Below, piece by piece: positions 11,773 through 54,180 of a stretch of 64,000 bases of DNA (position 1 is the first letter of the stretch; every line of letters begins with the position of its first letter). The position numbers and the translations under genes are program-made. The notes under the pieces were generated by a model. The model was not told where the DNA came from. It saw only the letters and a program-made list of their open reading frames with translations, and searched no databases. The stretch lies in assembly GCF_058153355.1 (NCBI RefSeq), contig NZ_CM177019.1. The stretch is one strand, 5' to 3'.

Positions 11773-13166
11773 CGCAATTTATCTCCTATTAAAAATTCCA
11801 GCGCAGCATCAAGGCGAATATGCGGCAACGGTTTGTCGACATCCATCACCTGCGGGCGAAACGCCTCAAACTGGAAGCCTTGCTTATCCCAGAACGCCTG
11901 GCCAGGCAAACGTGCGGGAACTTCGCCAGGATACACAGTGAGCGGTGCGCCATCGCTGAGTCGATTACCGCGCAGCGCCGGGATTTTCTCACCGTTAACA
12001 TCAATAATGCCGCTGGTGGTCGCCTGAACTGACGCCAGCCCCAGGCAGTCCATGCTGATCCCTTCGAACGCCGCATTTTGCCAGGCATCCTGAATCAGTT
12101 GTTGCAGTAATGAAACCATATTGGCGTGCTGATCGATGGTCACATGATCCGCTTTAGTGGCAGCAAACAATAGCTTATCGATAACCGGCGAAAACAAGCG
12201 CCGGAACAAGGTACGCTGCCCGTAGTGGAAGCTTTGCATCAGCTGCGTCAGCGCCAGACGCATATCATTGAATGCTTGTGGTCCACTGTTGAGAGGTTGC
12301 AGGCAATCCACCAGCACAATCTGCCGATCAAAGCGCAGAAAATGATTTTTATAGAACCCCTTCACCACTTTCTCGCAGTAATAATTAAACCGTTCGCGCA
12401 GCATTCCGGCATTGGTGTGCTTGTCGGCCTGTGCAAGTTTTGATTCGCCCCAGGCATCGACATCTGGCCACGGGAAGAATTGCAGCGCGGGCGCACCTGC
12501 CATATCGCCCGGCAAGACAAAACGCCCAGGCTGAATAAAGTGCAGCCCCTGCTGTTTGCAGTGGTGGAGATAATCGGTCCATGCGGCAGCAATGTCTGCA
12601 AGACGGTTTTCGTCGGCAGGTGCTAGTGGGTCCAGCCCTTCGCACATCATTCGCCATTTTGCCGACCATTCGCCGCGCTGACCATTGAGTAAGCCTGTCA
12701 TCTGGCGCGACCAGCTTAAATAGTCCTGCGCCAACATCGGCAAGTCGAGTAACCATTCGCCAGGATAATCCACTATCTCCAGATACAACGTGGAAGTGTC
12801 TTTGAAGTGACGCAACAGCGAATCGTTCGATTTATAGCGTAGCGCCAGGCGAATCTCACTGACGCCGCGTGTTGGGGTCGGCCAGGCGGGAGGATCGCCA
12901 TATAACTGCGCCAGCCCTTCATCGTAGGTGAAGCGCGGAATGCCAAAGTCACGCTGGGGAATGCGTTTTACGCCCAGCAGGCGCTCTTCACGCACCGCAC
13001 TTAATAGCGGCAAGCGTGCTCCGGCATGAATATTGAGCAACTGATTGACCATCGCAGTGATAAACGCGGTTTTGCCGCTGCGGCTAAGTCCGGTTACAGC
13101 GAGGCGCAGATGTCTGTCGACACCCCGATTCACCAGCGCATTAAGTTCATTTTTAAGTCGCTTCAT
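11769..13166 (-). CDS. ycjX: Conserved P-loop NTPase YcjX
   Basis: ORF 11769..13253; start at [35 protein letters not shown] gives 465 aa with Walker A GLSRSGKT. Confidence 0.9.
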
Positions 13167-13310
13167 TGCTGTCCTGTGGACCAGAAAAAAATCATTCGTA
13201 AGGATATGAATGTGGGGGCCATGCCCTTGATTATCAACTGCCCGTGTTGTCATCTTGAGGCGAACTCCATAAGATGTGCAGCATTCACGTTCGGACGGAG
13301 TTCCTGACCT

Positions 13311-14309
13311 ATGTCCCCTACTATTTATGATATTGCCAGGGTTGCCGGCGTATCAAAATCCACCGTATCACGCGTGCTGAATAAGCAAACCAATATCTCC
13401 CCGGAAGCGCGCGAAAAAGTGTTACGGGCCATTGAAGAATTACAGTATCAGCCAAATAAACTGGCCCGCGCGCTGACCTCTTCGGGCTTTGATGCCATTA
13501 TGGTGATTTCTACCCGCTCGACCAAAACTACGGCGGGTAACCCGTTTTTCTCCGAAGTTTTGCATGCCATTACCGCCAAAGCGGAAGATGAGGGTTTCGA
13601 CGTGATATTGCAGACGTCGCACAACCCAGCTGAAGACTTACAAAAATGTGAAAGCAAAATTAAGCAGAAAATGATTAAAGGCATTATTATGCTAAGTTCG
13701 CCAGCAGATGAGTCTTTTTTCGCCCAACTCGATAAATACGATATTCCGGTGGTAGTAATTGGCAAAGTTGAAGGTGAATATGCCCATGTTTATTCTGTCG
13801 ATACCGATAATTTTGGCGACAGTATTGCGCTGACCGATGCGCTAATTGAAAGTGGACATAAAAATATTGCCTGCCTACATGCTCCGCTTGATGTCCATGT
13901 TTCGGTTGACCGCGTTAATGGTTATAAGCAAAGTCTGGAAGATCATAATATTGCAGTGCGCAATGAGTGGATCGTTGACGGTGGTTATACCCATGAGACA
14001 GCACTACAAGCCGCGCGGGAATTATTAAGCCAGTCACCGTTGCCTGAGGCAGTGTTTGCTACTGACAGCCTGAAATTAATGAGCATTTATCGTGCGGCGG
14101 CAGAGAAAAACATTGCTATTCCGCAGCAGTTAGCGGTGGTGGGTTATAGTAATGAAACGCTGTCGTTTATATTAACGCCTGCACCGGGCGGCATCGATGT
14201 TCCGACGCAGGAGTTAGGTCAACAAAGCTGCGAGTTATTATTCCGCTTAATTGCCGGAAAACCGTCACCACAAAATATTACCGTTGCCACGCATATGTCG
14301 TTGAAATAA
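13311..14309 (+). CDS. ycjW: LacI-family transcriptional repressor YcjW
   Basis: 332-aa ORF with N-terminal HTH ([22 protein letters not shown]) and periplasmic-binding-protein-like effector domain. Confidence 0.9.
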
Positions 14310-14323
14310 ATGCCAGCTACGTT

Positions 14324-14407
14324 GCCTGAATGCCGGATGCGATGCTGGCGCATCTTATCCGGCCTACATTTATAAACCGGATAAAGTACTCGCGCCGCAT
14401 CCGGCAA
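14324..14407. repeat. REP/BIME-type extragenic palindromes between ycjW and ompG
   Basis: Two REP-like units (gcctgaatgccggatgcg...cgcatcttatccggcctaca and ccggataaagtactcgcgccgcatccggcaa) in the convergent intergenic space. Confidence 0.65.
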
Positions 14408-14419
14408 TTTAGCACATTA

Positions 14420-15325
14420 TCAGAACGCGTAATTCACACCGACACCTGCATAATGGAATTTATCGCTATCGCCTTCGTCGTGATCCTGCCACTCAAACGC
14501 GTATTCCAGCGAAACGGAAAGACCATTCTGGAAATCATAACCGTAAAACAAACCAAGACGGTTAAAATCATGGCCCTCACGTTCGATATCATCCTGCCAG
14601 TCCCAGTTACTCCAGCGATCCAACCCAATGCGCGTATACGGTGTCACCGAGTGGTTGCCGAGCGTCAGCGGTAAATAGGCGCGAATTTCTTGCGTGGAGA
14701 ATTCACCGTTATTGCGGCTGTCGTCCATATTGAAGCCGCGCTCGAGATAATAGTTCACTCGCAAGGCAACCGTTTCGTTGAAGGTATATTGCAGACCCGT
14801 TTCCGTTTCGACACGGGTATCAGCATAACCGGTTGTATTCAGATCGTTGGCAAATTTATACATCGACAGCCAACCGTTGAAACGTAAATCGTCAGTCAGT
14901 TTCACGTCCCAGTCTGGCGCGATTTTCCAGCGCTGCATATTTGCCGTGTCTTTACCCGGTTCATCAACGTAGTGATAACCATAGTTACGGAAACCACCGG
15001 TCAGGCCGAAACTGAAATCATCGCTTTCGAGAAACTGATAATGCACTTCCAGTTCCGGGCGATCAAACCAGGTTCCACGTTTACCCGCGCTATAATCTAC
15101 TGGCCCTTCCTGATAATAAGCCAGCGATATTCTCCACGGCCCGTTGGCAGCATTAAAATAGACGGAAGGCTCCGCCAGCCCGTCCATATCTTCGCCATAA
15201 CCCTCAACGTTTTCTATTTCGTACATCGCGCCGATATTAAAGTGCCAGTCGTTTTTTTCCTCAGCCTGTGCGCAGGCCATTCCCGCACACATCACCAGTG
15301 CGGTACAGGGTAATAACTTTTTCAT
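14420..15325 (-). CDS. ompG: Outer membrane porin OmpG
   Basis: 301-aa ORF with signal peptide MKKLLPCTALVMCAGMACAQA and beta-barrel-type alternating pattern ending ...GVGVNYAF. Confidence 0.9.
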   Translation of the reverse strand: MKKLLPCTALVMCAGMACAQAEEKNDWHFNIGAMYEIENVEGYGEDMDGLAEPSVYFNAANGPWRISLAYYQEGPVDYSAGKRGTWFDRPELEVHYQFLESDDFSFGLTGGFRNYGYHYVDEPGKDTANMQRWKIAPDWDVKLTDDLRFNGWLSMYKFANDLNTTGYADTRVETETGLQYTFNETVALRVNYYLERGFNMDDSRNNGEFSTQEIRAYLPLTLGNHSVTPYTRIGLDRWSNWDWQDDIEREGHDFNRLGLFYGYDFQNGLSVSLEYAFEWQDHDEGDSDKFHYAGVGVNYAF

Positions 15326-15369
15326 TATTGTTCCTTGTATTATCCTGGGGGAATGCCTTCCCCCTGTAT

Positions 15370-16452
15370 TTAGCGAATTGCTATTTCCGTTTCTGCATCA
15401 AAGAAATGACATTTGGTCATATCGAAATGAATAGTGACGTTTTCTCCTGCATGATAATCATTTAACGCACCGGCACGGACCACCAGCTCGTGCCCCCCAA
15501 CCGTGGTGTAGAGCATAAATTCCGCACCGGTTAATTCCGCCACGCTAATTTTGGCGGAAATGTTATTTTCCTCTTGCGCATCCGGATGAATATCTTCCGG
15601 GCGTATTCCCATCACGATGGGCTTATGCAAACTTTCCTGCGTTTTTAGAACCGCTAATTTATCTTCGGGAATGGTTAATTTAAGCGTTTCCGTAACGAAT
15701 TTATCACCATCGATCGTGCCGCGAATAAAATTCATTGCTGGTGACCCAATAAATCCGGCAACAAACATATTCGCCGGTTGGTTATAGACCGTTTTCGGCG
15801 CACCGACCTGCTGAACAATCCCATCCTTCATAATGACAATCCGCGTCGCCATGGTCATCGCTTCGGTCTGATCGTGGGTCACGTAGATCATGGTGGTGTT
15901 CAGTTTCTGATGCAGCTTGCTGATTTCCGCGCGCATTTGTACGCGCAGCTTGGCATCCAGGTTAGAGAGCGGTTCATCCATCAAAAACACGCCCGCTTCG
16001 CGCACAATCGCCCGTCCGAGCGCCACACGCTGGCGTTGCCCGCCGGAAAGCGCACCCGGCTTGCGTTTCAGGTACTCACGCAGGCCAAGGATTTGCGCCG
16101 CCCAGTTAACCCGCTCATCAATCACCTCTTTGGCGATTTTTTGCATCTTCAGGCCAAACGCCATGTTGTCGTAGACCGTCATATGCGGATACAGCGCGTA
16201 GTTCTGGAAAACCATCGCGATATTGCGCGCTTTGGCCGGAACGTCGTTCATTCGTTTGCCGTCGATCAACAGATCGCCGCCGCTGATCTCCTCAAGCCCG
16301 GCAATCATACGCAGGGTGGTCGATTTACCGCAGCCCGACGGACCGACAAACACGATGAACTCTTTATCGGCAATCTCCAGGTTGAAGTCCTTCACCACAT
16401 GCACCTGGTTATCGTAGATCTTTTGAATATGTTGTAACGAAAGCTGTGCCAT
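15370..16452 (-). CDS. ycjV: ABC transporter ATP-binding subunit (MalK/UgpC-like), apparently intact
   Basis: 360-aa ORF with Walker A GPSGCGKST, signature LSGGQRQR, Walker B FLMDEPLSNLD and C-terminal TOBE-like domain. Confidence 0.85.
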   Translation of the reverse strand: MAQLSLQHIQKIYDNQVHVVKDFNLEIADKEFIVFVGPSGCGKSTTLRMIAGLEEISGGDLLIDGKRMNDVPAKARNIAMVFQNYALYPHMTVYDNMAFGLKMQKIAKEVIDERVNWAAQILGLREYLKRKPGALSGGQRQRVALGRAIVREAGVFLMDEPLSNLDAKLRVQMRAEISKLHQKLNTTMIYVTHDQTEAMTMATRIVIMKDGIVQQVGAPKTVYNQPANMFVAGFIGSPAMNFIRGTIDGDKFVTETLKLTIPEDKLAVLKTQESLHKPIVMGIRPEDIHPDAQEENNISAKISVAELTGAEFMLYTTVGGHELVVRAGALNDYHAGENVTIHFDMTKCHFFDAETEIAIR

Positions 16453-16465
16453 GTTGATTCCTTTG

Positions 16466-17125
16466 CTATACGTTTTGCCAGAAGGCCGATAACCGCGGCC
16501 AGGTCAGAGATTCCGTTGAGGGCAGCAACAGTTGCGCCCCGGTTAAGCTCGTGCCGATCCCCACCGAGCGCATACCGCTGGCGTTAATGGCGTCAATACC
16601 CGCCTGCGCATCTTCAATGCCGATACATGCCTGCGGCGGCACGCCCAGCCCGGCACAGGCGGCGAGAAAGATTTCCGGATCCGGTTTCGAGTGTTTAAGT
16701 TGGGAAGCGTCCGCGCAGAAGGTGAAAAACTCGCGCAGTTCCAGCGCCGCTAAAATTGTTGGGGCATTCAGAGAGACGGAGGCCAGCCCTACCGGGATGC
16801 CTTGCGCCCGAAGATCTGCCAGCAAAGGCCGAATTCCCGGCAGAACAGCGTTAACCGTCAGTTCGCGCAGTGAGTGGACGTAGAGCAGATTTTTGCGATA
16901 CGCCAGTTGCGCCCGCTCCTGTGGGTTAAAGTCGCCCTCTTTGCCCCCGTGTTGCAGAATGCGTCGCAGGGACTCATCGCGGCTGATCCCTTTTAACGTC
17001 TCGTTAAATTGCGCATCGATGCTGATGCCGATTTCGGCGGCAATCTGCTGCCATGCCTGGAAGTGCAGATGTGCGGTGTCGGTGATCACGCCATCCAGAT
17101 CGAAAATTACCCCTTGTAGTTTCAT
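16466..17125 (-). CDS. ycjU: Beta-phosphoglucomutase (HAD superfamily)
   Basis: 219-aa ORF with HAD motif [11 protein letters not shown]. Confidence 0.9.
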
Positions 17126-19389
17126 TCATCCTCCTGATGCGTGGTAGCGGTCCCATTGAAGGGCAAAATAAAATCACCCAAACAGAAAACAGATTCCTCA
17201 GCCACGGATATAAGCTGACCGTTCAAACGCATTGAAACGGGCGCAGAAGTTCGAATCGCAATACGCTGCGCGTCGAGAGTGACCTGTAATTCGCAGCCCT
17301 GCCAGAACAGAGGGAAAGATAACTGTTGCCACTGCTCAGGTAACGCTGGGTTCAGATGTAATTCGCCGTCGCGCACGCTGACTCCGGCAAAACCCTGAAT
17401 CGCCCCCAGCCAGATAGCGCCAGTTGCGGCGGCATGGATACCGTCATCGCAGCTATGCGGATCAGCACCAAGATCGATTTCACTCCCCTCGCGCCAGAAC
17501 GGGTAACTCTGCGCAAGCAAGCCACAACGCGCGGCAACAATGCCGTGGATCGCTTTACTCAATGACGAGTCGTGAATGGTGCGCGGTTCATAAAATTGCA
17601 GATTGGCGAGACAAGAGGCCGCTGAAAATTGTTCTGGTAGCATGTAATTGAGCATCACCACATCGGCCTGCTTGAGGATCTGCATCTCGTTCACTTCTGC
17701 GCGTGAATAATCCAGCAGAATGGTTTGTTTGCCTGCTGCCGCTTTGTATTTCGCCAGATCTATCGCCGGTTTCGCCATAAACGAATCATCCTGCGGCAAA
17801 ACGCCGTCGGGCTGAATTTCTGGCATCCACAGCTCTTTGAGGAACATGTCGGCACGATGAATAAACGCATCGTCGCTACAGCCAAACTGGCGAGCAATAT
17901 TCAGTGCCTGTTGGACGTTGTAGCAGGCCATATAACTTGTGTATGCGTTATTGTTAACGTGTTCGGTATATTCGTCTGGCCCAATAACATCATGAATTTC
18001 CAGACGATCGTTAACCCTTACCGCGCGGCTAATCCAGAACTTTGCGGTCTCCAGCAGTAGCGCCATGCCTTCGTGAGCAATGAAGCTTTCATCCCCCGTT
18101 ACCTGCCAGTATTGAATAACCGCCCAGGCGATATCGGCAACCAGATGATGTTCTGCCTGCGCTGAGGCCACTTTTTGCCGCAGCCCGGTACGAATGTTAA
18201 TGGCGGCAAATTCCGGCGTTTCTTCTTCGCCGCTACGTGCGCTCTCCCACGGAAACAGCGCGCCCTGCCAGCCATTGCGTCGCGCTTTCTCCTGCGCGCC
18301 AGGCAAGTTGTGCCAGCGATAGCGCAGTAAACTTCGGGCAATCGTCGGTTCGCTAAACAGATGGAACGGCAGCAGGAACACTTCCGTATCCCAGAAAACG
18401 TGGCCTTTGTAGCCTTCGCCGGTTAAGCCTTTCGCCGCAATGCTGCTACGCTCGTCGTGGGCGGGCGTCATAATACGTAAATGATAAAGCGCATAGTCTA
18501 ACGCCCGCTGATCGTGCGCATCGCAACTGTTTACCGTGACACGACGTTTCTGCCACCATTGCTGCCAGTTTTCTGTGGATGCTGCAAGAAGTTGGTCATA
18601 ACTCTGCTGCGCGCACATTTCGAGCTGGCGAAGCGACGCACTGCCCCACTCGTCTAAAGCAGCTTGTCGGTCGTCCCGCCAGGCAATCCACACCCGCTTT
18701 TGCAAGGTCAGTGTCTCACCTGTGCGAAGTTGCGCGCTGGTATGTTGCAGCAAACGGCGCTCTTTTGCGGTATAGCACTGCTGAACGTCACCACTCGCCT
18801 GACAGTGACAACTGATTGCCACATCACTGCGCCCATCCTGGGTGGTGTAGATCCCCTGCATCAGGTGCTGACCGAACACCCGCACCTGGGTTTCGTCAAG
18901 ATGCTGGCGACCGTGGTTGGTTTGCGTGGCGTTAATGCCTGTTGAGATCAGCACTGATGCCTCGGCGTCCAGCGGGGTAATACTGATTTCCAGCGCGATC
19001 AACGGCAGTTGATCTGTCGAAACAAAGCGACGACTTGCAAGGGTGAACCCTGCGCCGTCGCTGGTGCGCCAGATAACACTGCGGCGTAATTCTCCACTGG
19101 CAAAGTCAAGCTCACGCTGCCACGCTTCGCGGGATAACGAAAAAATCTCGCCGTTTAGGGTAATTTCCATTCCCACCACGTCTGGCAGATTCACCAGTTC
19201 GTTGATTTCACCTTTCCCGGCTCGATGATAAAGCCCTGCCAGATACATGCCGCGCGTCTGCCGCGTGTAATCTTCTTCATGGCTGGCACGAAGCCCAAGA
19301 TAGCCGTTTCCCTGCGCCATTAATGAGGCATATTTATTCAGGGTATGCTGGCTGAAATGGGGTTCCGTTAATGTTACTGGCCTGGTCAT
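17122..19389 (-). CDS. ycjT: Kojibiose phosphorylase (GH65 family)
   Basis: 755-aa ORF; position and size match E. coli ycjT; 4-bp overlap with ycjU. Confidence 0.9.
17140..17156. promoter_or_regulatory. 17-bp motif cgtggtagcggtcccat at the ycjT/ycjU junction; exact copy at 27066-27082
   Basis: Exact 17-mer match seen directly; candidate operator (possibly for YcjW). Confidence 0.4.
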
Positions 19390-20441
19390 AATTCCACACG
19401 CGTCCCTGTTTCTGCGGATTGATACAGCGCCGCCACCAGTTGCTGGATGATGTACCCTTGCTCGGCGTCGGCAATCATCACTGGCTTGCCCTGTACGTGA
19501 TTGATAAAGGCTTCCATGCTGCGCAAATGACGGTTGTCGTCGGCCAGTTCCCGTTGCATCAACGTCATTAATTCACCGTTGTTGTCGGTATAGATATGCG
19601 CCGGAAATAGCGTGGCTCCCGCTTTATCGCCGCAAAAGCTGACGTTCATAATCGACTGTTCGCGGATGTTGAGTGCAAATGATGTCTCCAGCCAAAGAAT
19701 GCCGCCGTTATGAAATTCAATGGTGCCAAACAGCGAATCTTCGACGCTGTAGGTTGCCGGGTCCCACTCGCCAAATTGACCACAGCTCTTTTGCGGGCCG
19801 ATCTTTTGAAAGCTATGCGCATTCACGCTTTTCACCGCCGGAAAGCCCAGCACATACATCGCGGCATCCAGCATATGAATGCCGATGTCGATCAGCGGGC
19901 CACCGCCCTGCAGTTCTTTATTGGTAAAGACACCCCAACCGGGAACGCCGCAGCGACGCAGGGCGCGAGCGGTCGTCACGTAAATCTCACCCAAAACGCC
20001 GTTGGTCACCTGTTCACGCAGTTGTTGCGTATCAAGGGCAAAACGATGGTGAAAGTCGTAGGCCAGCACCTTGCCCTGTTTGCGCGCGGTATCGCACATT
20101 TCCCGCGCCTGTTCTGGCGTCATGGCGGGCGGTTTCTCGCACATCACATGGCAGCCTGCCTCCAGCGCCATCAGGGTATGCTCGTAATGAAAACGGTTAG
20201 GTGAACAGACGCTTATCACGTCAGGTTTTACCGCCAGCAGCATGGCCTGCGGATCGTCCCACACGGATGCGTTCCCGTATTTCTCTGCCAGCGCCTGCGC
20301 CTGGGAAAGGCGGCTGTCACAGACAGCCACCAGTTCCAGATCGTTGCGGGTGCAGTAGTACGAAGCATGAACCTTATCCGCCACCTGGCCCGCGCCTATT
20401 ATCGCGACCCGCAGCGGAGAGCTTGTCATTGCACTTTTCAC
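19386..20441 (-). CDS. ycjS: Gfo/Idh/MocA-family NAD-dependent oxidoreductase (3-keto-D-glucoside reductase type)
   Basis: 351-aa ORF with N-terminal Rossmann motif RVAIIGAGQVADKVH. Confidence 0.85.
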   Translation of the reverse strand: MKSAMTSSPLRVAIIGAGQVADKVHASYYCTRNDLELVAVCDSRLSQAQALAEKYGNASVWDDPQAMLLAVKPDVISVCSPNRFHYEHTLMALEAGCHVMCEKPPAMTPEQAREMCDTARKQGKVLAYDFHHRFALDTQQLREQVTNGVLGEIYVTTARALRRCGVPGWGVFTNKELQGGGPLIDIGIHMLDAAMYVLGFPAVKSVNAHSFQKIGPQKSCGQFGEWDPATYSVEDSLFGTIEFHNGGILWLETSFALNIREQSIMNVSFCGDKAGATLFPAHIYTDNNGELMTLMQRELADDNRHLRSMEAFINHVQGKPVMIADAEQGYIIQQLVAALYQSAETGTRVEL

Positions 20442-20450
20442 AAAGACCTC

Positions 20451-21239
20451 TTAGCAGGTGCGCAACCAGGCCAAAGAATCACGGTACGCCTGAGCAGGAT
20501 CTTCTGCCCGGATACGCCCTTCATACACCACATAGCCCTGATAGTTATCGGCGCGCAACTGTTCAAACAGCGCGTGGAAATCGAGGGTGCCGCTGCCCGG
20601 CTGATAGCGATGATTATCGGCAATATGCACATGACCAAGCAGGTCACGGTTGTCATGCAGCGCCTGCGCCAGGTTATCCTCTTCGATGTTCATGTGATAG
20701 AAATCGCCGATAATCTGCACATGTTTAAGGTTGTTTTCGACGATGTAACGACGAGCATCGGCGAGCGTGTTGATCATGTGGTCCTGATAGCGGTTTAGCG
20801 GTTCGAGATACACCACCGTTCCGGTACGCGCGGCCACCTTTTCCAGGAAACGCAGGGAATCGCTCACCATTTGACGATCGCCGTCCAGGCTGCGCGGTGA
20901 GGTCATCGGCGGTAAGCGGAAGGTAAACATGCCCCACGCAGCCGGAACGACAATACCTTTGCCGCCCACTTCCGCCAGCGCCTCAAGAATGCGCTCGATC
21001 TGCTTTAAACCATTAAGACGACGTTCTTCGATAAAGTCGCCAATCCAGCCGTCATAGCCGCCGCAGGCAGTGGTCACCGGTAAACCGGTTTCTTTGATCG
21101 CTGCTTTGACTTCTTCGATATTGTTAACCAGCAGTTTGCCGTCAATCTCAAAACCATCAAAACCCATCTCTTTGATATAACGAAATTTCTCCAGAATATT
21201 TTCCGGGAAAAAGGCCTGATTCTGTGTACCGATTTTCAT
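20451..21239 (-). CDS. ycjR: Sugar phosphate isomerase/epimerase (TIM-barrel, xylose-isomerase-like)
   Basis: 262-aa ORF; operon position matches ycjR. Confidence 0.85.
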   Translation of the reverse strand: MKIGTQNQAFFPENILEKFRYIKEMGFDGFEIDGKLLVNNIEEVKAAIKETGLPVTTACGGYDGWIGDFIEERRLNGLKQIERILEALAEVGGKGIVVPAAWGMFTFRLPPMTSPRSLDGDRQMVSDSLRFLEKVAARTGTVVYLEPLNRYQDHMINTLADARRYIVENNLKHVQIIGDFYHMNIEEDNLAQALHDNRDLLGHVHIADNHRYQPGSGTLDFHALFEQLRADNYQGYVVYEGRIRAEDPAQAYRDSLAWLRTC

Positions 21240-21255
21240 TTTTCCGTTCTTAGAA

Positions 21256-22308
21256 TTAAAAAGTTACGCCCATTTTGATGCTCTGTTCCGGATGCTGGTC
21301 GACATACTGCATGTAGCTTTCCGGGCTGTTAGCAAAGGTCACCACCGGGTCGATTAAATCTTCACAATTGAGATAACCGTTCATCAGCAGTTCCCAGCAG
21401 GTTTCTTCAATACGCTTGCGACTCCAGCGCGGATAATCCGGGTTCGGTTCACTGCACGCACGAGAGAAGACAATTTTGGCGTTGTTGAAATGCGCTTCGC
21501 GTCCGAGGTTAAAACCTTCAGCAAACGGTTTGGCAAACGCAACATAGGAGATGGTGCCGCCATAAGCCAGGCCGCGCAGTGCCGATTGCAGCGCGTCGGC
21601 GTAGCCGCTGGTTTCGATAATCACATCGGCACCCTGCTTGCCGGTCAGCGTTTTAATCTCTTTGCCTACATCCGTGCCAATGGGGTTAAGGCAGAAATCC
21701 GCGCCGTGGCGACGGGCAATATCACAGCGATGAGCGATAGGATCGACACCAATCACCACCGACGCGCCAGCGCGTTTTGCCAGTTGAATGGCAATTTGAC
21801 CAATCGCGCCAAGCCCTACCACCACCACAAAATCGCCCACGCGCACGTTGGCATCGCGCACGCCGCTCATGGCAAACTGCGCCGGGTCGTAACAGACGGC
21901 GTTTTTCCACGAGCTACCTTGCGGCATTTTGCGCAGTTTGTAGTTATTCACCGCGTTAATGATGACCGTTTCGGAAAGCGGGCCGTAGCCGCATACGCTG
22001 TCGCCCACCGCGTAGTCGGTAACCTCGCTGCCGCACTCGATAATGTCGCCAACCACCATGTTGCCAAGCTGGAACTTGCCAAACTCAATGCCGCGCGGCG
22101 CATCTGCCGGACGCGGGGTGAACATCTGCCATTCGCCATTAAAGTCTTCATTAATAAACGGGCTGGCGGCGCGGAAATCGACCACTTCCGTCCCGTGTTT
22201 CGGCGCGCCGAACCGCACGCGGATCTTCACTTCATTGGCTGAAATCGCCCTGTCTTCATACTCCACCAACGCGGCAACGCGCGGTGCTGTGGCTACTAAC
22301 TTTTTCAT
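21256..22308 (-). CDS. ycjQ: Zn-dependent alcohol/sugar dehydrogenase (MDR family)
   Basis: 350-aa ORF with GLGAIGQIAIQLAK NAD-binding motif. Confidence 0.85.
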   Translation of the reverse strand: MKKLVATAPRVAALVEYEDRAISANEVKIRVRFGAPKHGTEVVDFRAASPFINEDFNGEWQMFTPRPADAPRGIEFGKFQLGNMVVGDIIECGSEVTDYAVGDSVCGYGPLSETVIINAVNNYKLRKMPQGSSWKNAVCYDPAQFAMSGVRDANVRVGDFVVVVGLGAIGQIAIQLAKRAGASVVIGVDPIAHRCDIARRHGADFCLNPIGTDVGKEIKTLTGKQGADVIIETSGYADALQSALRGLAYGGTISYVAFAKPFAEGFNLGREAHFNNAKIVFSRACSEPNPDYPRWSRKRIEETCWELLMNGYLNCEDLIDPVVTFANSPESYMQYVDQHPEQSIKMGVTF

Positions 22309-22338
22309 GTAAAACTCCTTGTCAAGAAACTGGCCGCT

Positions 22339-23181
22339 TTAGCCCTTCACGCCACCGGCGGTCAAACCACTCTTAATAAAACGTTCCGAAAGTGCATACA
22401 TAATCACCACCGGCAATGCGGTCACCAGCGAGGCCGCCATCATTCGGCCCCAGATGTAATCAGGGGTACTGAACAGCGCGTTCAGGCCTACCGGTAAAGT
22501 GAAATTGCTGGCGCTGGAGAGGAAAATCGAGGCAAACAGATAGTCGTTCCATGCCACCATAAAGCAGTAGACGAACACGGATATCAGCCCGGACATCGCC
22601 AGCGGTACCGTGATGCGGAAGATGATTTGCAACCGGTTGAGGCCATCCATCATCGCCGCTTCTTCGATTTCATCGGGGATGGTGTCGAAGTAGCTTTTCA
22701 GCATAAACACGGCGGTAGGCAGGGTTTGCGTCACCATGGTGATGATCAGCGCCATCTCGGTGTCGTAAATGCCAAGCGCAGTGATGATTTTGAACAGCGG
22801 CACCACCAGCAAAATGCCGGAGAACATGTACACCGTGTAGAAGCTGGCGTTGATGGTCATTCGCCCTTTAAAGCGCAGGCGGGAAAGCGCGTAAGCCCCG
22901 AGAATGCCGAGAAATACTGCTATCACGGATGAAACTACCGACACCACCAGGCTGTTACGGAAATAATCGACAAACGGGAAAATCACCGGGTTAAAAATGT
23001 CGACGTAATGCTCCAGCGTCCACTGCTGTGGCAGCAGCGTAGGATGCAGCGAGATCGCCTCTTTCGCGCTTTTGAACGAGGTCATCAGCATCACAAAAAA
23101 GGGAAACAGCGTGATGATGAGAAACAGCGCCAGCCCGCAGTAAAAACCGATGCGACTGAGTGTGCGTTTATTTGTTGCCAT
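22339..23181 (-). CDS. ycjP: ABC sugar transporter permease
   Basis: 280-aa hydrophobic ORF; MalG-like. Confidence 0.85.
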   Translation of the reverse strand: MATNKRTLSRIGFYCGLALFLIITLFPFFVMLMTSFKSAKEAISLHPTLLPQQWTLEHYVDIFNPVIFPFVDYFRNSLVVSVVSSVIAVFLGILGAYALSRLRFKGRMTINASFYTVYMFSGILLVVPLFKIITALGIYDTEMALIITMVTQTLPTAVFMLKSYFDTIPDEIEEAAMMDGLNRLQIIFRITVPLAMSGLISVFVYCFMVAWNDYLFASIFLSSASNFTLPVGLNALFSTPDYIWGRMMAASLVTALPVVIMYALSERFIKSGLTAGGVKG

Positions 23182-24049
23182 TGAGGTTCACCCGTTTTCT
23201 GGTCAGCAGAATGACAGCGAAAATAATGATGAAGAGCACCACTGAGATCGCCGCCGCTTTCCCTAAGTCATTAAAGGCAAAGGCGGTTTTGTAGAGATAG
23301 ACGCCGAGAATATCGACCTTGGTCGTCAGCAAATAAACGTCAGCGAACATGTAGAACATCCAGATGGTACGCAGAGTCACCACCGTCGCCAGGACCGGCA
23401 TAATCGCGGGCAGCGTGACGATGCGAAACCGTTGCCAGGCATTCGCGCCGTCCATCTCTGCCGCTTCGTACAACGATTTATCAATGGTCTGCAAAATCGC
23501 CAGAAACGAGATAAAGGCATACGGGAAGTAGCGCCAGATGGCGAACAGCACCACCAGCACAAAACTACTGCCCGGGTTATCGAACCACAGCGGCGCCTGC
23601 TCATAGAGATGCAGAAGATCGACGCCGAGGTAGTTCACAATGCCGTAGCCGTTGTTGAACATGTATTTCCAGGCGAACACCAGCGAAATGGATGGCGTTA
23701 CGTAGGAGAGGATCACCAACGAACGCGCGGTCTTGCGCAGGCGAAACTCGCGGTTGAAAAACATCGCCACTGCCAGCCCGAGCACGGTGCTGCCCGCCAC
23801 CACCAGCGCGGTATACCAGACCGTCATCCACAGCGAGTGCCAGAAGCCGGGATCGGAGAGAATACGCACATAGTTGCTCACCCCAACAAACGTTGCCTCG
23901 ATGTTGGGATTGAGCGGCAGACGTAAAAAACTGATTTCGATATTCGACACCATTGGCCACGCCACCAGACCGCCCAGCAGTAATAAGCTGGGCGCGAGAA
24001 GCAGCAGCGCAAAGGGCATATCGGAACGACCTGAAAAAAGCCTGTTCAT
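23168..24049 (-). CDS. ycjO: ABC sugar transporter permease
   Basis: 293-aa hydrophobic ORF; MalF-like; overlaps ycjP start. Confidence 0.85.
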   Translation of the reverse strand: MNRLFSGRSDMPFALLLLAPSLLLLGGLVAWPMVSNIEISFLRLPLNPNIEATFVGVSNYVRILSDPGFWHSLWMTVWYTALVVAGSTVLGLAVAMFFNREFRLRKTARSLVILSYVTPSISLVFAWKYMFNNGYGIVNYLGVDLLHLYEQAPLWFDNPGSSFVLVVLFAIWRYFPYAFISFLAILQTIDKSLYEAAEMDGANAWQRFRIVTLPAIMPVLATVVTLRTIWMFYMFADVYLLTTKVDILGVYLYKTAFAFNDLGKAAAISVVLFIIIFAVILLTRKRVNLNGNK

Positions 24050-24069
24050 TGCGGATTCCTGTCCTGGGA

Positions 24070-25362
24070 TTAGTGCTGTTCGATCAGTTCATCCAGCTTT
24101 TTCTGGCTCGCTTGCAGCGTGGTTGAGAGATCGGCTTTCCCCACGGTGACGTTATGCACCATTGAACTCACCACACCAGAGCCCGTGACATCGCCCATGC
24201 GGGTAAAGTTTTTGTCCCCTACCGCACCAAAAACCTGAATGTTTGGCAGTTCGCTAATCAACTGATTCGGCAAGTCTCCCAGCGCCTTAATCACATCGTT
24301 ATCTTTCCAGGTGGCAGTCGTCACAACCGCTTTGTTCACCGGCAGCGCCGCGCCTGGTGACATCATCACCCAGTCGGCAATGTTGTCTGCCTGCTCCATA
24401 AAGGTGACAAATTTTTCCGCCGCTTCCGTCTCTTCGCTGTTTTGCCCGGCGGTAATGGTCAGCGAGGTCAACATGCCGTAGACCGCCGAGTTTTTCTCGG
24501 TTGGCACCACGAAACCGACATTTTTCGGGTCACCTTCTTTAATCACAGCCGGAAGGATATAGGTGGAGTAAATCGCCATCGGCGCGGTGCCGTTCATAAA
24601 GGCGTCTTTCACTTCCATAATGTCGTTAGAACCCGGCATGGTGTTGGCAGCAAGGTCGCGGTAATAGGTCAGCGCCTGCATCATCTCCGGCGTATCAAGA
24701 GTGATTTTGCCTTCGGCGTTAAAAACGTTGGCCTGATTGGATAACGCAAACTGAGAGAACGATTGTTCCGTCAGTACGCTTTCTGCCGTCGGCAGTGCAA
24801 TACCGTATTTTTTATTCGCCGGATCGTTCAGTTTCTGTGCGACATCCAGCAACTGTTGCCAGTTTTTCGGCTCATCCAGCCCGGCTTTTGCCAGCACATC
24901 TTTGCGATACCAGATACCGCCAATCCATGCGCTGACAGGAACACCGGTCCAGGCGCTACCATCTTCGGTGCGCACAATCCGCAGAACGCCGTCATAAAAC
25001 GCGCCTTCACCGACATTACTGATGACCGTAGCAACCGCTTTGCGATCGATAAGCTGTTCTTTGTCCATCACTTTCGCGTAGTCATGGCTGGTTTCGATCA
25101 CTTCCGGCAGCGAGCCGCTACGGGAAAGGGTGATGACTTTGGTGTTATAGGCATCTTCTTCCACCGGCACTTGTTTAACAGTGATGCCTGGGTTTTCTTT
25201 TTCAAAACGCGCAATTAACTGACTTATAACCGCCTGGCGTTCCTGTTCCACCGAAGAATGCATAAACTCGATGGAGACATTCGTTTTATTTTCTTCTTTA
25301 CAACCTGAAATCAGGGCGCAGGAAACCAGTGCTGATAACAGCACGATTTTAGATTTAATCAT
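24070..25362 (-). CDS. ycjN: Periplasmic sugar-binding protein of ABC transporter
   Basis: 430-aa ORF with lipoprotein-type signal (MIKSKIVLLSALVSCALISGC). Confidence 0.85.
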   Translation of the reverse strand: MIKSKIVLLSALVSCALISGCKEENKTNVSIEFMHSSVEQERQAVISQLIARFEKENPGITVKQVPVEEDAYNTKVITLSRSGSLPEVIETSHDYAKVMDKEQLIDRKAVATVISNVGEGAFYDGVLRIVRTEDGSAWTGVPVSAWIGGIWYRKDVLAKAGLDEPKNWQQLLDVAQKLNDPANKKYGIALPTAESVLTEQSFSQFALSNQANVFNAEGKITLDTPEMMQALTYYRDLAANTMPGSNDIMEVKDAFMNGTAPMAIYSTYILPAVIKEGDPKNVGFVVPTEKNSAVYGMLTSLTITAGQNSEETEAAEKFVTFMEQADNIADWVMMSPGAALPVNKAVVTTATWKDNDVIKALGDLPNQLISELPNIQVFGAVGDKNFTRMGDVTGSGVVSSMVHNVTVGKADLSTTLQASQKKLDELIEQH

Positions 25363-25375
25363 GAGATGTTCCTTT

Positions 25376-27055
25376 TTATTTAATCCACATAACCTGCCAG
25401 GGGCGCAGCGTTATTTCATTACCCACTATATCAACTTCACTAATCAGATCCCGACCGTGCAGGTCAGTAATATTTATATGCTGAATATTTTCACTGACAT
25501 TAAACAAGCCCGTCAGACAATTACCATCCGCGTTGCTTCTTTGAATACGCATTACGGATGAATTAACCGTATCGATGGTAAAATCATTATCTGGATGAAA
25601 CTCGTTATGACTGCGACGAATTTTAATTAGTCGCGACAATTCATGATATACCGCGTGCCTTAACGTCGCTTTATTGTTCAGTTCGGTCGTGATCTCTTCG
25701 CTGGTGTATTTTTTACGGTTAATCGCACGGTTATATCCCAGTTTTTCGACACCTGCGTAATCATTACGCGAGCCCAGAATACTTTGAATATATATCGCGG
25801 GCACACCGGGGAAAATTAACAAAATCGCATGGGCAAGGATAAACCTGGCGCAACGTTCTTCATCGCTACTCTCGCGGCGGCTTAACGCATCCATATAAGT
25901 GACATTCATTTCATACGGGCTACGCGTACCGTCGGGATTATTTTTCCAGTTAACTAATGCCCCTTCCTGCTGTAATGCCTCGACCAGCGCTAATATTTCG
26001 CTTTCGGGTAGCAAGCCACGCAGTGGGTTAAGCCCGATGCCATCGTGAGAGGCGAGGAAGTTAAACCAGGTGGTGTTGCTGGAAGGTAGTGTCAGGTTTT
26101 GCGCCCACGCACAAAGCGCCTCAACGTTCTGTTTTTGCACCGCATGCAGCACCAGCGGCGGCAGCGAGAACTGGTACACCATATGCGCTTCGTCATCACC
26201 GTTGCCAAAGTAAGCAATGTTGTCTTTGTGCGGAACATTGGTCTCGGTAATGATCACTGTACCTGGTGCTACGTCATCAATAATCGACCGTAACAGCTTG
26301 ATAATCAGATGTGTTTTTTCCAGATGGATGCAGCTTGTTCCCGGCTCTTTCCACATAAAGCCAACGGCATCCAGGCGGACATACTCAGCACCTTTCTCAA
26401 GGTAACACAGTAAAACATCCACCATCGCCAGTAACACTTCAGGGCTACGGTAATTCAGGTCAATTTGATCGTCGCTAAAGGTGGTCCATAAATGGCGCGT
26501 TGAATGATCGCGCATCTGGAATGGCGTTAATAACGGTAACGCACGCGGGCGAGTGACGGCGCTGAGATCGGTTTGCGGGTCAACGGCAATAAAAAAATCT
26601 TCAAAGCCTGGCTGCTGCTGTAAATAGTTTTTAAACCATTCACTTTTTGCCGACATATGGTTGCAGACAAAATCAAACATTAAATGACTGCATTCACCGA
26701 GTTGCTGAATATCCTGCCACTCCCCCGCTTCACTGGCGACCTGATGATAATCAATTACCGAAAAGCCATCATCAGATGACCATGGATAAAACGGCAACAA
26801 ATGAACATGTGAAAAAATGCTTTGCAGCCAGTGATGGTAAAACTGATTAAATGTGGGTAGTGGTTTTAAATCATTACTGTGAAATTGATCGGCATAGGTA
26901 ATTAACACGACATCACTTTCATCCCAGTGTTTTTTACGTCGTTGTGTAATTAATCTTTTCGCACTCTCAAGACGCGTTACAAGTTTCTGTAAATGAGTCG
27001 CGGTAAATGTTCCACCGTAGATTTCGTCCAGGTAATCCGTAATTTTCTGTTTCAT
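25376..27055 (-). CDS. ycjM: Glucosylglycerate phosphorylase (GH13, sucrose-phosphorylase-like)
   Basis: ORF 25376..27082; start at MKQKITDYLDEIYGG gives 559 aa. Confidence 0.85.
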   Translation of the reverse strand: MKQKITDYLDEIYGGTFTATHLQKLVTRLESAKRLITQRRKKHWDESDVVLITYADQFHSNDLKPLPTFNQFYHHWLQSIFSHVHLLPFYPWSSDDGFSVIDYHQVASEAGEWQDIQQLGECSHLMFDFVCNHMSAKSEWFKNYLQQQPGFEDFFIAVDPQTDLSAVTRPRALPLLTPFQMRDHSTRHLWTTFSDDQIDLNYRSPEVLLAMVDVLLCYLEKGAEYVRLDAVGFMWKEPGTSCIHLEKTHLIIKLLRSIIDDVAPGTVIITETNVPHKDNIAYFGNGDDEAHMVYQFSLPPLVLHAVQKQNVEALCAWAQNLTLPSSNTTWFNFLASHDGIGLNPLRGLLPESEILALVEALQQEGALVNWKNNPDGTRSPYEMNVTYMDALSRRESSDEERCARFILAHAILLIFPGVPAIYIQSILGSRNDYAGVEKLGYNRAINRKKYTSEEITTELNNKATLRHAVYHELSRLIKIRRSHNEFHPDNDFTIDTVNSSVMRIQRSNADGNCLTGLFNVSENIQHINITDLHGRDLISEVDIVGNEITLRPWQVMWIK

Positions 27056-27065
27056 GTTGCCTTTC

Positions 27066-27082
27066 CGTGGTAGCGGTCCCAT
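27066..27082. promoter_or_regulatory. Second copy of the 17-bp motif cgtggtagcggtcccat, immediately upstream of the ycjM start codon
   Basis: Exact match to 17140-17156. Confidence 0.4.
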
Positions 27083-27221
27083 GAAACGAGAGACTACTCC
27101 GCAGAAAATAAACTGTCAATTGAGCACAAGGGTTTTAGTCACGCAGGAAATCATTTTTTACCAGGGAAAAAGCGTATTTGTGAGCTGACGCAAATAATCT
27201 ATGGGGATGTAAATAAGGTGT

Positions 27222-30356: not shown

Positions 30357-30440
30357 TTGCCGGATGCGGCGTGAACGCCTTATCCGGCATACATAATCAA
30401 TACGTCGTTTGCAGGCCTGATAAGCGCAGCGCATCAGACA
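30357..30440. repeat. REP/BIME elements between pspF and puuE
   Basis: ttgccggatgcggcgtgaacgccttatccggcatac and gcaggcctgataagcgcagcgcatcagaca REP-like palindromic units. Confidence 0.65.
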
Positions 30441-39758: not shown

Positions 39759-39788
39759 CCCGGATAAAGCGTTCACGCCGCATCCGGC
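39759..39788. repeat. REP element downstream of ymjA
   Basis: gcccggataaagcgttcacgccgcatccggc palindromic unit. Confidence 0.55.
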
Positions 39789-52862: not shown

Positions 52863-52888
52863 TTCTGTCTCCTGGCCTATCACTTGGT

Positions 52889-52904
52889 GAGAATGATCAT
52901 TCTC
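52889..52904. promoter_or_regulatory. 16-bp perfect palindrome gagaatgatcattctc upstream of the TetR gene (candidate autoregulatory operator)
   Basis: Perfect dyad seen directly, 27 bp upstream of the preferred TetR start. Confidence 0.5.
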
Positions 52905-53339
52905 ATTTTTGCTAATTATACGTTTCTCCAAAGTAATGGAAAGTATTTTTATCTTATTCATGGTGCATATTCTGATAATGAAGAGATTGTGGAGATTCTG
53001 TGAAGATAGTTGACAATATTAAGTTGGGGTCAATTCATCAGAAAGGCAGCGACTTGTTGTCGCCAGTTCTGTTTTCATCATCAAACTTATCGGAGCTAAT
53101 ACGAATAGTTTCATAGTCAGATTCTATAAGATATTTCCCCAACCTACCCCTTGCAGGCGTCAAGAGTAGATAACGCAAAATGCTCTGTACCGCAGCTTCT
53201 CTCCGGTACAGAAAGCGCAACTATAGCCACCCACAGCCAGGTTGATTATAATAACCGTTTATCTGTTCGTACTGTTTACTAAAACGACGAATCGCCTGAT
53301 TTTCAGGCACAACAAGCATCAACAATAAGGATTAAAGCT

Positions 53340-54128
53340 ATGGGTTTTCTTTCCGGTAAGCGCATTCTGGTAACCGGTGTTGCCAGCAAACTGTCCATCG
53401 CCTACGGTATCGCTCAGGCGATGCACCGCGAAGGAGCTGAACTGGCATTCACCTACCAGAACGACAAACTGAAAGGCCGCGTAGAAGAATTTGCCGCTCA
53501 ATTGGGTTCTGACATCGTTCTGCAGTGCGATGTTGCAGAAGATGCCAGCATCGACACCATGTTCGCTGAACTGGGTAAAGTTTGGCCGAAATTTGACGGC
53601 TTTGTACATTCCATTGGTTTTGCACCGGGCGATCAGCTGGATGGTGACTATGTTAACGCCGTTACTCGTGAAGGCTTCAAAATTGCCCACGACATCAGCT
53701 CCTACAGCTTCGTTGCAATGGCAAAAGCTTGCCGCTCCATGCTGAATCCGGGCTCTGCCCTGCTGACCCTTTCCTACCTTGGCGCTGAGCGCGCTATCCC
53801 GAACTACAACGTTATGGGTCTGGCAAAAGCGTCTCTGGAAGCGAACGTGCGCTATATGGCGAACGCGATGGGTCCGGAAGGTGTGCGTGTTAACGCCATC
53901 TCTGCTGGTCCGATCCGTACTCTGGCGGCTTCCGGTATCAAAGACTTCCGCAAAATGCTGGCTCATTGCGAAGCCGTTACCCCGATTCGCCGTACCGTTA
54001 CTATTGAAGATGTGGGTAACTCTGCGGCATTCCTGTGCTCCGATCTCTCTGCCGGTATCTCCGGTGAAGTGGTCCACGTTGACGGCGGTTTCAGCATCGC
54101 TGCAATGAACGAACTCGAACTGAAATAA
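53340..54128 (+). CDS. fabI: Enoyl-ACP reductase (NADH), FabI
   Basis: 262-aa [43 protein letters not shown]...; recognised as E. coli FabI. Confidence 0.95.
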
Positions 54129-54180
54129 TTTGACGGCGGTTTCAGCATCGCTGCAATGAACGAACTCGAACTGAAATAAT
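54079..54180 (+). repeat. Perfect 51-bp tandem duplication covering the last 16 codons and stop of fabI plus 2 bp
   Basis: Unit ttgacggcggtttcagcatcgctgcaatgaacgaactcgaactgaaataat occurs at 54079-54129 and again at 54130-54180 with no mismatch. Confidence 0.9.

Follow-up and report, generated by a model that had tools for sequence, protein, structure and literature searches.

Within the LacI family, PurR and CcpA act as roadblocks when bound to operators within genes. The distance from the promoter to the PurR site in purB is a few hundred bp, and the site falls in the first gene. This site is cited in PMC4052901, according to which intragenic sites make up less than 1% of LacI-family sites, and lac and gal, the closest paradigms here, have an intragenic second operator. 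A central CG in an even-length palindrome or pseudo-palindrome is the operator rule of the family (PMC4052901, PMC6599011). The main text of Ravcheev 2014 (PMC4052901) does not mention YcjW.

Luhachack et al. 2019 (PMC6599011), who reported a 14-bp motif together with EMSA, cite Zuo & Stormo 2014 for the first test of the YcjW motif. The top two YcjW ChIP-seq regions in E. coli K-12 were upstream of ycjM and at the ycjT/ycjU junction (PMC6599011). Among the 64 sites of the YcjW ChIP-exo of Gao et al. 2021 (PMC8464067), the S/N was 1665 for ycjU and 840 for ycjM, and 121 for the next best. The operon was derepressed 20–60 fold in K-12 ΔycjW (source data of PMC6599011). The rise by qRT-PCR (n = 3) was 28–61x for ycjM, 20–26x for ycjT, 39–58x for ycjU, and 34–47x for ompG (PMC6599011). 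Kojibiose at 0.5–1 mM released YcjW of K-12 in vitro (PMC6599011). The published papers on YcjW do not separate the role of the internal site from that of the site at ycjM.

The window analyzed in this study (the whole stretch of DNA, 64 kb) carries the same pair of sites in the ycj operon. Both are already known YcjW operators, mapped experimentally in E. coli K-12. The site in the ycjM leader is called O_M, and the site at the ycjT/ycjU junction is called O_U. The features are as follows:

13311..14309, plus strand: ycjW, LacI-family repressor of 332 aa (ORF), convergent with ompG at the distal end of the operon
14420..27055, minus strand: regulated operon ycjM-N-O-P-Q-R-S-T-U-V-ompG, from the annotation of near-identical E. 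coli records and ORFs
17123..17125, minus strand: start codon of ycjU (pgmB), overlapping the ycjT stop (ATGA)
17130-17135: Shine-Dalgarno AGGAGG of ycjU, between operator and ATG
17140..17156, minus strand: 17-mer, first copy; the core plus one and two flanking bases, identical in this lineage only
17142..17155, minus strand: O_U, 14-bp YcjW operator core identical to O_M, inside the 3' end of ycjT
27053..27055, minus strand: start codon of ycjM, with a Shine-Dalgarno-like GGAAAGG between operator and ATG
27066..27082, minus strand: 17-mer, second copy, exact match
27068..27081, minus strand: O_M, 14-bp YcjW operator core, exact match, at about +4 to +17 of the predicted transcript
27091..27096, minus strand: predicted -10 hexamer TAGTCT of P_ycjM, after a 17-bp spacer and 9 nt from the operator
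27114..27119, minus strand: predicted -35 hexamer TTGACA of P_ycjM (PWM), invariant in all taxa

Like the PurR operator in purB and the CcpA cre, O_U is a CG-centred pseudo-palindrome for a LacI-family dimer, within coding sequence and far from the promoter, and it belongs to the rare intragenic class (PMC4052901). Unlike the purB site, it is at a boundary between two genes of a polycistron, 9.9 kb away from the promoter, and we infer a roadblock role for it. As in lacO1/lacO2 and galOE/galOI, a promoter-proximal operator is accompanied by a second one inside a structural gene of the same operon, and the natural ycj operator is asymmetric, as is lacO1. The separation is 9.9 kb for the YcjW sites but 0.1–0.4 kb in lac and gal. 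The two YcjW sites are sequence-identical, whereas in lac and gal the auxiliary and primary operators are not the same, and YcjW is without the LacI tetramerization tail. Compared with K-12, the window shares the 14-mer, both positions, and the orientation, and the operators themselves show no difference. The K-12 MG1655 (NC_000913.3) operators carry the same 14-mer at 1370190-1370203 (upstream of ycjM) and 1380118-1380131 (ycjT/ycjU). In contrast, the operon interior of the window is a divergent allele (89–96% identical to K-12), and ycjV is intact in the window and a pseudogene in K-12.

The sequence CGTGGTAGCGGTCCCAT (plus strand) has two exact matches in the 64-kb window, at 17140-17156 and 27066-27082, and no third match in the window at up to 3 mismatches. 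The exact search thus reproduced the repeat that the preliminary description had placed near the ycjU and ycjM starts. On the gene strand the 17-mer reads ATGGGACCGCTACCACG; since the genes are on the minus strand, both copies are co-oriented relative to transcription, as had been described. The functional unit is the 14-bp core and not the 17-mer. The core reads TGGGACCGCTACCA on the gene strand, at 17142-17155 and 27068-27081, and the 3 extra bases of the 17-mer are lineage-specific: K-12 ends in CCAAAC at the ycjT/ycjU copy, the triplet after the core being AAC in K-12 and CGC in the window.

The core consists of the halves TGGGACC and GCTACCA and is an imperfect palindrome with 5/7 symmetric pairs around CG at positions 7–8, its centre, as scored by hand. 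The one detail of the preliminary description that proved wrong was its remark that the motif is not an obvious palindrome, as the symmetry is of the LacI type. The automated repeat search reported no palindrome because the arms have no 6-nt exact seed. The motif TGGNANCGNTNCCA matches both sites with 0 mismatches. In the motif search that had been proposed over the window, both sites scored 19.9 by PWM and no further strong YcjW-like site was found; the two next best matches scored 12.0, and one of them has no central CG. An autoregulatory operator was looked for upstream of ycjW, and none was found. Symmetrised forms of the operator are TGGGACCGGTCCCA and TGGTAGCGCTACCA.

The repressor gene adjoins the operon in the window, as the preliminary description had stated, and in 11/11 comparison loci. 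YcjW contains the Pfam LacI HTH domain PF00356 (1.8e-20) and Peripla_BP_1/3/4. It is 97% identical to K-12 YcjW, and the HTH is identical. Residues 1–30 (HTH) are 100% conserved in all taxa, and the whole protein is 74–76% identical in distant genera. Among solved structures, the nearest relatives of YcjW are the dimers PurR and CcpA, to both of which it aligns over the full length. The YcjW chain stops near residue ~326 of LacI, short of the tetramerization helix. The product of ompG, the most distal gene of the operon, is a large open porin.

At O_M, positions 27049-27099 of the minus strand equal the K-12 ycjM EMSA probe LL58 (51/51), with the 14-mer at the probe centre, and the ycjM leader is identical to K-12 over more than 160 nt. 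The earlier assignment of the repeat to YcjW, a LacI-family protein, is supported by this probe, by the K-12 ChIP peaks, and by conservation, and its statement that sites were reported at the ycjM promoter and near ycjT/ycjU holds (PMC6599011, PMC8464067). Promoters were scored with a PWM scan against a coding-sequence background (median 3–4, 90th percentile ~6, maximum ~9). The predicted P_ycjM scored 10.8–13.3 at a fixed position, exceeding the background maximum; its -10 is TAGATT in distant genera. The simple hexamer scan was blank at both sites, because it needs at least 4/6 matches per hexamer and the Escherichia -10 is TAGTCT. In this predicted geometry, the O_M core would start 9 nt past the -10 of P_ycjM and 2–3 nt after the predicted transcription start, and it ends 12 nt short of the ycjM ATG. 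Operator placement "after a predicted TSS" is given in PMC6599011, and O_M agrees with it. A conserved candidate CRP-like box is present at 27176-27197. The ChIP-exo "ycjM" peak (table position) lies ~118 bp downstream of O_M, and no YcjW-like motif was found at these coordinates or at the weak "ycjN" peak.

O_U, which matches the K-12 site at ycjT/ycjU, lies at the centre of the strongest ChIP-exo peak. The first 17-mer copy covers codons N745–T750 of ycjT (755 codons), and the O_U core runs from the third base of N745 to the first base of T750, ending 16 nt short of the ycjU ATG. This segment belongs to the unconstrained C-terminal tail of ycjT. O_U is located ~9.9 kb downstream of O_M and P_ycjM, and the spacing is similar in every taxon. 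No conserved promoter was found upstream of O_U by PWM in any taxon, and the scores (3.1–8.0) were within the coding background. O_U lies inside a transcribed region without a detectable promoter of its own, which is the mark of a roadblock-type site.

The 14-mer was unchanged at both positions in 10/11 loci. The O_M core was invariant in 9/10 loci covering the position (the window, K-12, and 8 others), as one locus (L004) stops short of it. The exception was lineage L009, with one substitution at each site. The exact 14-mer was present at both positions in Leclercia (two species), Enterobacter genomosp. O, and Pseudenterobacter, as well as in Escherichia and Pseudocitrobacter. In the four distant species of three other genera, the ycjT DNA is only 61–64% identical to the window, and the flanks are unalignable. 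No invariant run in the ycjT codon alignment is longer than the O_U core, and of the 2249 windows of 14 nt (10 taxa) it alone is fully invariant. Its four consecutive 4-fold codons (GGG ACC GCT ACC) are all invariant, versus 7% for such sites in general. Both cores were kept even by the E. coli variants that diverged most among those sampled in searches of 5426 genomes, and the flanks alone varied. At both sites in all taxa, the operators end 11–16 nt before the start codon with a Shine-Dalgarno between. These alignments indicate very strong purifying selection on both sites in Escherichia, Pseudocitrobacter, and the three more distant genera. Lack of conservation in orthologous loci had been named as the observation that would speak against the operators; the comparison gave the opposite result, with both copies conserved.

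We believe that the data are very probably best explained as a whole by two high-affinity YcjW operators, with a promoter block at O_M, a proposed second lock at O_U, and release by a sugar. Binding of YcjW at both sites in this strain is predicted from sequence identity with K-12. On the identical sequence in K-12, the O_M probe was bound, both sites were occupied in vivo, the operon was repressed, and kojibiose released the repressor (PMC6599011, PMC8464067). In the proposed mechanism, YcjW would bind as a dimer, the HTH of each monomer reading one TGG-A-C half-site and the hinge region contacting the central CG. With YcjW on O_M, RNA polymerase would be kept from initiating or from escaping the promoter, and the entire ycjM-ompG operon would stay off. 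O_U may be a second lock, a roadblock halting RNA polymerase before ycjU-ycjV-ompG, and the polymerase stopped there could have escaped from O_M or read through from the upstream psp operon. YcjW would leave the DNA in response to a sugar; kojibiose has this effect in vitro, and the effector may be kojibiose or a related glucoside. That O_U acts as a transcriptional roadblock is the reading we favour over an operator of an internal promoter, although we give it only about an even chance. The ~2-fold higher derepression of ycjU than of ycjT fits an extra YcjW-dependent block at O_U, but this difference rests on qRT-PCR with n = 3 and fits an internal promoter equally. The promoter scores favour the roadblock, being 3.1–8.0 at no conserved position upstream of O_U and 10.8–13.3 at a fixed position for P_ycjM.

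It is possible, but rather doubtful, that O_U is the operator of an internal promoter that lies within the 3' end of ycjT and gives ycjU-ycjV-ompG a transcript of their own, in which case both copies would be promoter-proximal with the same layout (-10, ~9 nt, operator, Shine-Dalgarno, ATG). The shared 11–16 nt spacing to the start codon in all taxa agrees with such a layout, as does TATTTT, which lies 9 nt upstream of O_U in Escherichia with the same gap as in P_ycjM. The K-12 sequence has TTCACT-18-TATAAC upstream of O_U (score 8.0), the derepression of ycjU is ~2-fold above that of ycjT, and a consensus scan could miss a weak or non-sigma-70 promoter inside ycjT. However, all of these scores are in the coding-background range, the candidate hexamers differ in distant genera (TCTTGC, TCATTT) with no common -35-like element, and the ChIP-exo table, obtained under repressing conditions, has no RNAP binding at O_U (PMC8464067). 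O_U might also be an auxiliary operator that cooperates with O_M by DNA looping, thereby concentrating repressor around the promoter. The presence of two identical high-affinity sites within a single operon and the precedent of lac and gal (PMC4052901) point in this direction, and a GalR-like, HU-assisted dimer–dimer contact is compatible with the sequence. We consider looping very unlikely, as the sites are ~9.9 kb apart in every taxon and YcjW resembles dimeric PurR and CcpA end to end, stops short of the tetramerization helix of LacI, and is a dimer in the model built on PurR 1vpw (Gao et al. supplement, PMC8464067).

The 14-mer could instead act in the transcript, as an RNA structure or a protein or sRNA site controlling the translation of ycjM and ycjU. 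The orientation to transcription and the 11–16 nt position are conserved at both sites in all genera, and the asymmetric bases are invariant, although a symmetric dimer could bind DNA without them. Nevertheless, the structures vary by site and taxon, with no common or unusually stable fold (most z-scores were -1 to +2), and 0 Rfam families reached the threshold anywhere in the window. YcjW binds double-stranded DNA probes and the sites are the top ChIP peaks, which is enough to explain the conservation without an RNA role. A function in the RNA thus seems highly improbable. The chance that the repeat is a functionless coincidence is practically nil, and this reading is already refuted. Under an iid model, 0.09 exact direct repeats of at least 17 nt are expected in the window and 3 were observed. 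One of the 3 is an 18-mer without evident meaning. The caution of the preliminary description, that such a recurrence is not vanishingly improbable by chance, was justified for the repeat alone, because 3 such repeats exist, including the apparently meaningless 18-mer. The doubt is removed by context and conservation: both copies are just upstream of start codons in one operon with a LacI-family gene adjoining, the sequence is that of an experimentally bound probe, and the core is invariant across genera at 61–64% background DNA identity.

Two observations stand against the explanation as a whole: the ChIP-exo "ycjM" peak is displaced by ~118 bp from O_M to a place without the motif, and a symmetric dimer leaves an asymmetric, identically oriented, invariant 14-mer at both sites unaccounted for. 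At the four "free" positions of TGGNANCGNTNCCA, weak K-12 sites (cyaA, narP) vary, and both primary operators are invariant across Escherichia, Pseudocitrobacter, and three other genera. A symmetric site would be expected to suit a symmetric dimer best, so that one of the half-sites seems to be held below its optimum or retained for some other purpose. The fixed polarity could make the roadblock dependent on direction, with the stronger half-site towards the oncoming RNA polymerase, or could reflect a second reader of the same sequence. We think it unlikely that the asymmetry itself is functional.

Overall, a validated repressor-site pair was recoverable from raw sequence without tools, which serves as a calibration point and adds little biology. 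The additions of this study are that the conserved unit is exactly 14 bp and that it is invariant across genera, including four consecutive synonymous positions in the ycjT tail. With O_U, the genome's strongest YcjW site would contribute to the silencing of ycjU-ycjV-ompG at a distance of 9.9 kb from the promoter.

The sequence CGTGGTAGCGGTCCCAT occurs on the plus strand at 17140-17156 (copy 1) and 27066-27082 (copy 2), with no third match in the window at up to three mismatches. As annotated in near-identical E. coli records, the locus contains the psp operon, ycjM-N-O-P-Q-R-S-T-U(pgmB)-V-ompG, and ycjW. The ycjM-ompG operon lies on the minus strand, on which both copies read ATGGGACCGCTACCACG in identical orientation. 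The repressor gene and the central 14 bp of each copy are as follows:

13311-14309, plus strand: ycjW, with LacI helix-turn-helix and periplasmic-binding-protein domains
17142-17155, minus strand: O_U, the operator core in the 3' end of ycjT, by ycjU
27068-27081, minus strand: O_M, the operator core in the ycjM leader

Copy 1 lies inside ycjT in the frame AAT GGG ACC GCT ACC ACG, encoding N745-G-T-A-T-T750 of a protein of 755 residues. In the 16 nt between its core and the ycjU ATG stands an AGGAGG Shine-Dalgarno sequence, and this ATG overlaps the stop codon of ycjT (ATGA). Copy 2 lies outside coding sequence, with GGAAAGG in the 12 nt that separate its core from the ycjM ATG. The preliminary description, read from the sequence without tools, had proposed this 17-mer as a candidate operator of the ycj sugar operon, and its account of both positions, the shared orientation and the neighboring LacI-family repressor gene was confirmed. 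Its caution about chance recurrence was also fitting: 0.09 direct repeats of at least 17 nt were expected in the window under an iid model and three were observed, one of them an 18-mer without evident meaning. The repetition on its own did not strongly exceed chance.

Genome comparison showed that the conserved unit is only the central 14 bp, TGGGACCGCTACCA. The identity of the two copies ends at the 17-mer edges in pairwise alignment; after the ycjT/U copy, K-12 has AAC versus CGC in the window, and in distant genera the bases differ on either side of the 14-mer. A scan with YcjT as the query, one genome per species, gave nine loci. Five were close (Pseudocitrobacter vendiensis, Escherichia spp., E. 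whittamii, and a Citrobacter MAG) and four were distant (Leclercia adecarboxylata, Leclercia sp., Enterobacter genomosp. O, and Pseudenterobacter timonensis; YcjT 63-66% identical). With the exception of Escherichia sp. MOD1-EC7003, every one of the nine loci, and K-12, carried an exact 14-mer at each of the two positions in unchanged orientation; one locus (L004) is truncated and extends over the ycjT/U site only. The operators of MOD1-EC7003 carry one substitution each (TGGGATCGCTACCA and TGGGACCGCCACCA). This was the sole lineage with altered operators (2308-2321 and 12235-12248; C6T at ycjM, and T10C at ycjT/U, a synonymous GCT to GCC change), and its YcjW helix-turn-helix is unaltered. 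Among E. coli genomes, 60-bp queries centered on each core matched in 4691 and 4945 of 5426, and the most divergent matches inspected kept the core and varied in the flanks alone. In E. coli 2018-05-2CC, the sequence directly following the ycjT/U operator has been deleted between two CGCATC repeats; the ycjU Shine-Dalgarno sequence and start and the ycjT end are lost, and the operator core remains.

The conservation check that had been proposed on orthologous ycj loci found both cores kept in the distant genera, where ycjT DNA is 61-64% identical to that of the window. In the ycjT codon alignment (2262 columns, 10 taxa), the 14-mer was the longest invariant run and the sole fully invariant 14-nt window among 2249. 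Of the 185 four-fold degenerate sites in ycjT, no more than 13 (7%) were invariant, and the operator (GGG ACC GCT ACC) holds four consecutive such sites, all invariant. O_U sits in the YcjT C-terminal tail, past the last Pfam- or PDB-aligned residue (~728-732). Because this tail is unaligned and the amino acids flanking the peptide vary freely, the conserved G-T-A-T peptide is set by the DNA site and not the reverse.

The 14-mer matches TGGNANCGNTNCCA with 0 mismatches. The preliminary description had considered the motif not an obvious palindrome; it is an imperfect one, with complementary pairs at 1/14, 2/13, 3/12, 5/10 and 7/8 and a CG center. A palindrome with a central CG is a LacI-family signature (PMC4052901; PMC6599011). 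The non-symmetric positions 4, 6, 9 and 11 vary among weak K-12 sites and are invariant, in fixed orientation, in both primary operators across all genera, which a symmetric dimer does not predict. YcjW of the window shares 97% identity with its K-12 counterpart, and ycjW is intact and adjacent in every comparison locus. In distant genera, YcjW is 74-76% identical overall and 100% identical over residues 1-30 (helix-turn-helix). A weak YcjW-like 14-mer, TATTACCGTTGCCA, lies in the last ycjW codons (14276-14289; PWM 8.0 versus 19.9 for the operators) and is also found in K-12 and P. vendiensis; the ChIP-exo listing has no peak there (PMC8464067).

The binding of YcjW to these sites has been reported in K-12, where the identical 14-mer lies at 1370190-1370203 and 1380118-1380131. 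Luhachack et al. (2019) mapped YcjW by ChIP-seq and derived a 14-bp motif that agrees with what Zuo & Stormo (2014) had tested before; YcjW shifted a probe with the ycjM site, kojibiose released it, and the operon was derepressed in delta-ycjW (PMC6599011). The probe LL58 equals window 27049-27099 (minus strand) at 51 of 51 positions, with the 14-mer central (18 + 14 + 19 nt), and the cyaA and narP probes contain TGGTAACGTTCCCA and TGGTAGCGTTACCA (PMC6599011). Among 64 YcjW sites found by ChIP-exo (Gao et al. 2021; Dataset S4), the signal/noise was 1665 for ycjU, 840 for ycjM and 121 for the next best, and narP (75) and cyaA (73) were recovered (PMC8464067). The ycjU and narP intervals are centered on their own motifs, on which the NC_000913.2/.3 offset was calibrated (1977 and 1980). 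The center of the "ycjM" interval (1368320-1368355 in NC_000913.2, approximately window 26935-26970) falls 118 bp downstream of O_M, inside ycjM, and no YcjW-like sequence was found at this interval. The statement in the preliminary description that YcjW sites had been reported at the ycjM promoter and near ycjT/ycjU is borne out, and the probe match, the K-12 identity and the conservation support its reading of the 17-mer as a YcjW operator. Both sites are E. coli YcjW operators that were already known.

The operators are identical to those of K-12, whereas the window strain has a divergent operon allele. The operon interior is a mosaic (~13000-25500, spanning ycjW through the 3' part of ycjM), 96-100% identical to the P. 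vendiensis ycj operon and 89-96% to K-12. In the flanks, the window is only 73-82% identical to P. vendiensis but 96-98% to K-12 (psp, ycjX). The 95-99% class comprises only 451 of 5423 E. coli records. This pattern suggests that the operon allele was replaced horizontally. The ABC transporter ATPase gene ycjV (15370-16452, minus strand) is an intact 360-aa ORF, whereas in K-12 it is an annotated pseudogene split into ycjV/ymjB. Elsewhere, a perfect 51-bp tandem duplication (two copies of TTGACGGCGGTTTCAGCATCGCTGCAATGAACGAACTCGAACTGAAATAAT, 54079-54180) covers the last 16 codons and stop of fabI (ORF 53340-54128), so the FabI protein is unchanged and the second copy is silent 3' of the gene. 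Other repeats were a REP-like inverted 20-mer (GCCGGATGCGGCGTGAACGC, 30359-30378 and 39769-39788), a perfect 18-bp palindrome (TGAGAATGATCATTCTCA, 52888-52905), a 22-24-bp palindrome around GCCACGGATATATCCGTGGC (61415-61438), and an 18-bp direct repeat that looks like chance (CGCCTGTTCTGGCGTCAT, 20106-20123 and 61879-61896).

We are highly confident that O_M is a classical repressor site over the transcript start. Upstream of it, every taxon has a TTGACA hexamer, 17 bp from a -10 hexamer that reads TAGTCT in Escherichia and TAGATT in the distant genera, and 8-9 nt separate this -10 from the operator. This predicted promoter scored 10.8-13.3 with a simple sigma-70 PWM, versus a maximum of 9.1-9.3 in 73 coding-sequence chunks. 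If transcription starts about 7 nt past the -10, the operator would span about +3/+4 to +16/+17. A CRP-like box (27176-27197, plus strand, ATTTGTGAGCTGACGCAAATAA, TGTGA-N6-GCAAA) lies further upstream; it matches at 8 of 10 core positions in each of the 10 taxa, within non-coding DNA that has otherwise diverged. Relative to the predicted start, the box is centered at -102.5 in Escherichia and Pseudocitrobacter; in Leclercia, Enterobacter and Pseudenterobacter it sits one helical turn closer, at -92.5/-91.5. The box is weak by itself, with 36 such matches across the window.

The role of O_U is unaddressed in the YcjW papers. We believe, at about an even chance, that it is a transcriptional roadblock, in which YcjW bound inside ycjT would block transcription. 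O_U is intragenic, lacks a conserved promoter, and has the highest in vivo YcjW occupancy of any site (ChIP-exo, PMC8464067). In delta-ycjW, ycjU was derepressed 39-58-fold versus 20-26-fold for adjacent ycjT, a difference of about 2-fold (PMC6599011). The same qRT-PCR data are compatible with O_U as the operator of an internal promoter, and the operator-SD-ATG spacing is conserved, but this possibility, which we hold only tentatively, is not supported by the promoter sequences. The best scores upstream of O_U were 3.1-8.0, inside the range of the coding background (median 3-4, 90th percentile ~6), K-12 having one match at 8.0; Escherichia has TATTTT 9 nt from O_U, the same distance as at ycjM, and a PWM scan across taxa found no conserved promoter, the candidate positions and sequences not being kept in distant genera. 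Looping between O_U and O_M is very unlikely, as the distance is 9.9 kb and YcjW, modeled as a dimer, lacks the LacI tetramerization tail. An RNA-level element is extremely improbable: no conserved or stable structure and no Rfam match was found.

The closest solved relatives of YcjW are PurR and CcpA. Both of these use intragenic roadblock sites, in line with the roadblock reading of O_U, whose closest mechanistic analogues are PurR on purB and CcpA on cre sites within genes. lacO2 and galOI have a similar layout but differ in distance and in repressor oligomeric state. LacI-family sites inside coding regions, such as the PurR-purB site, are rare (<1%; PMC4052901), and O_U belongs to this rare intragenic class.
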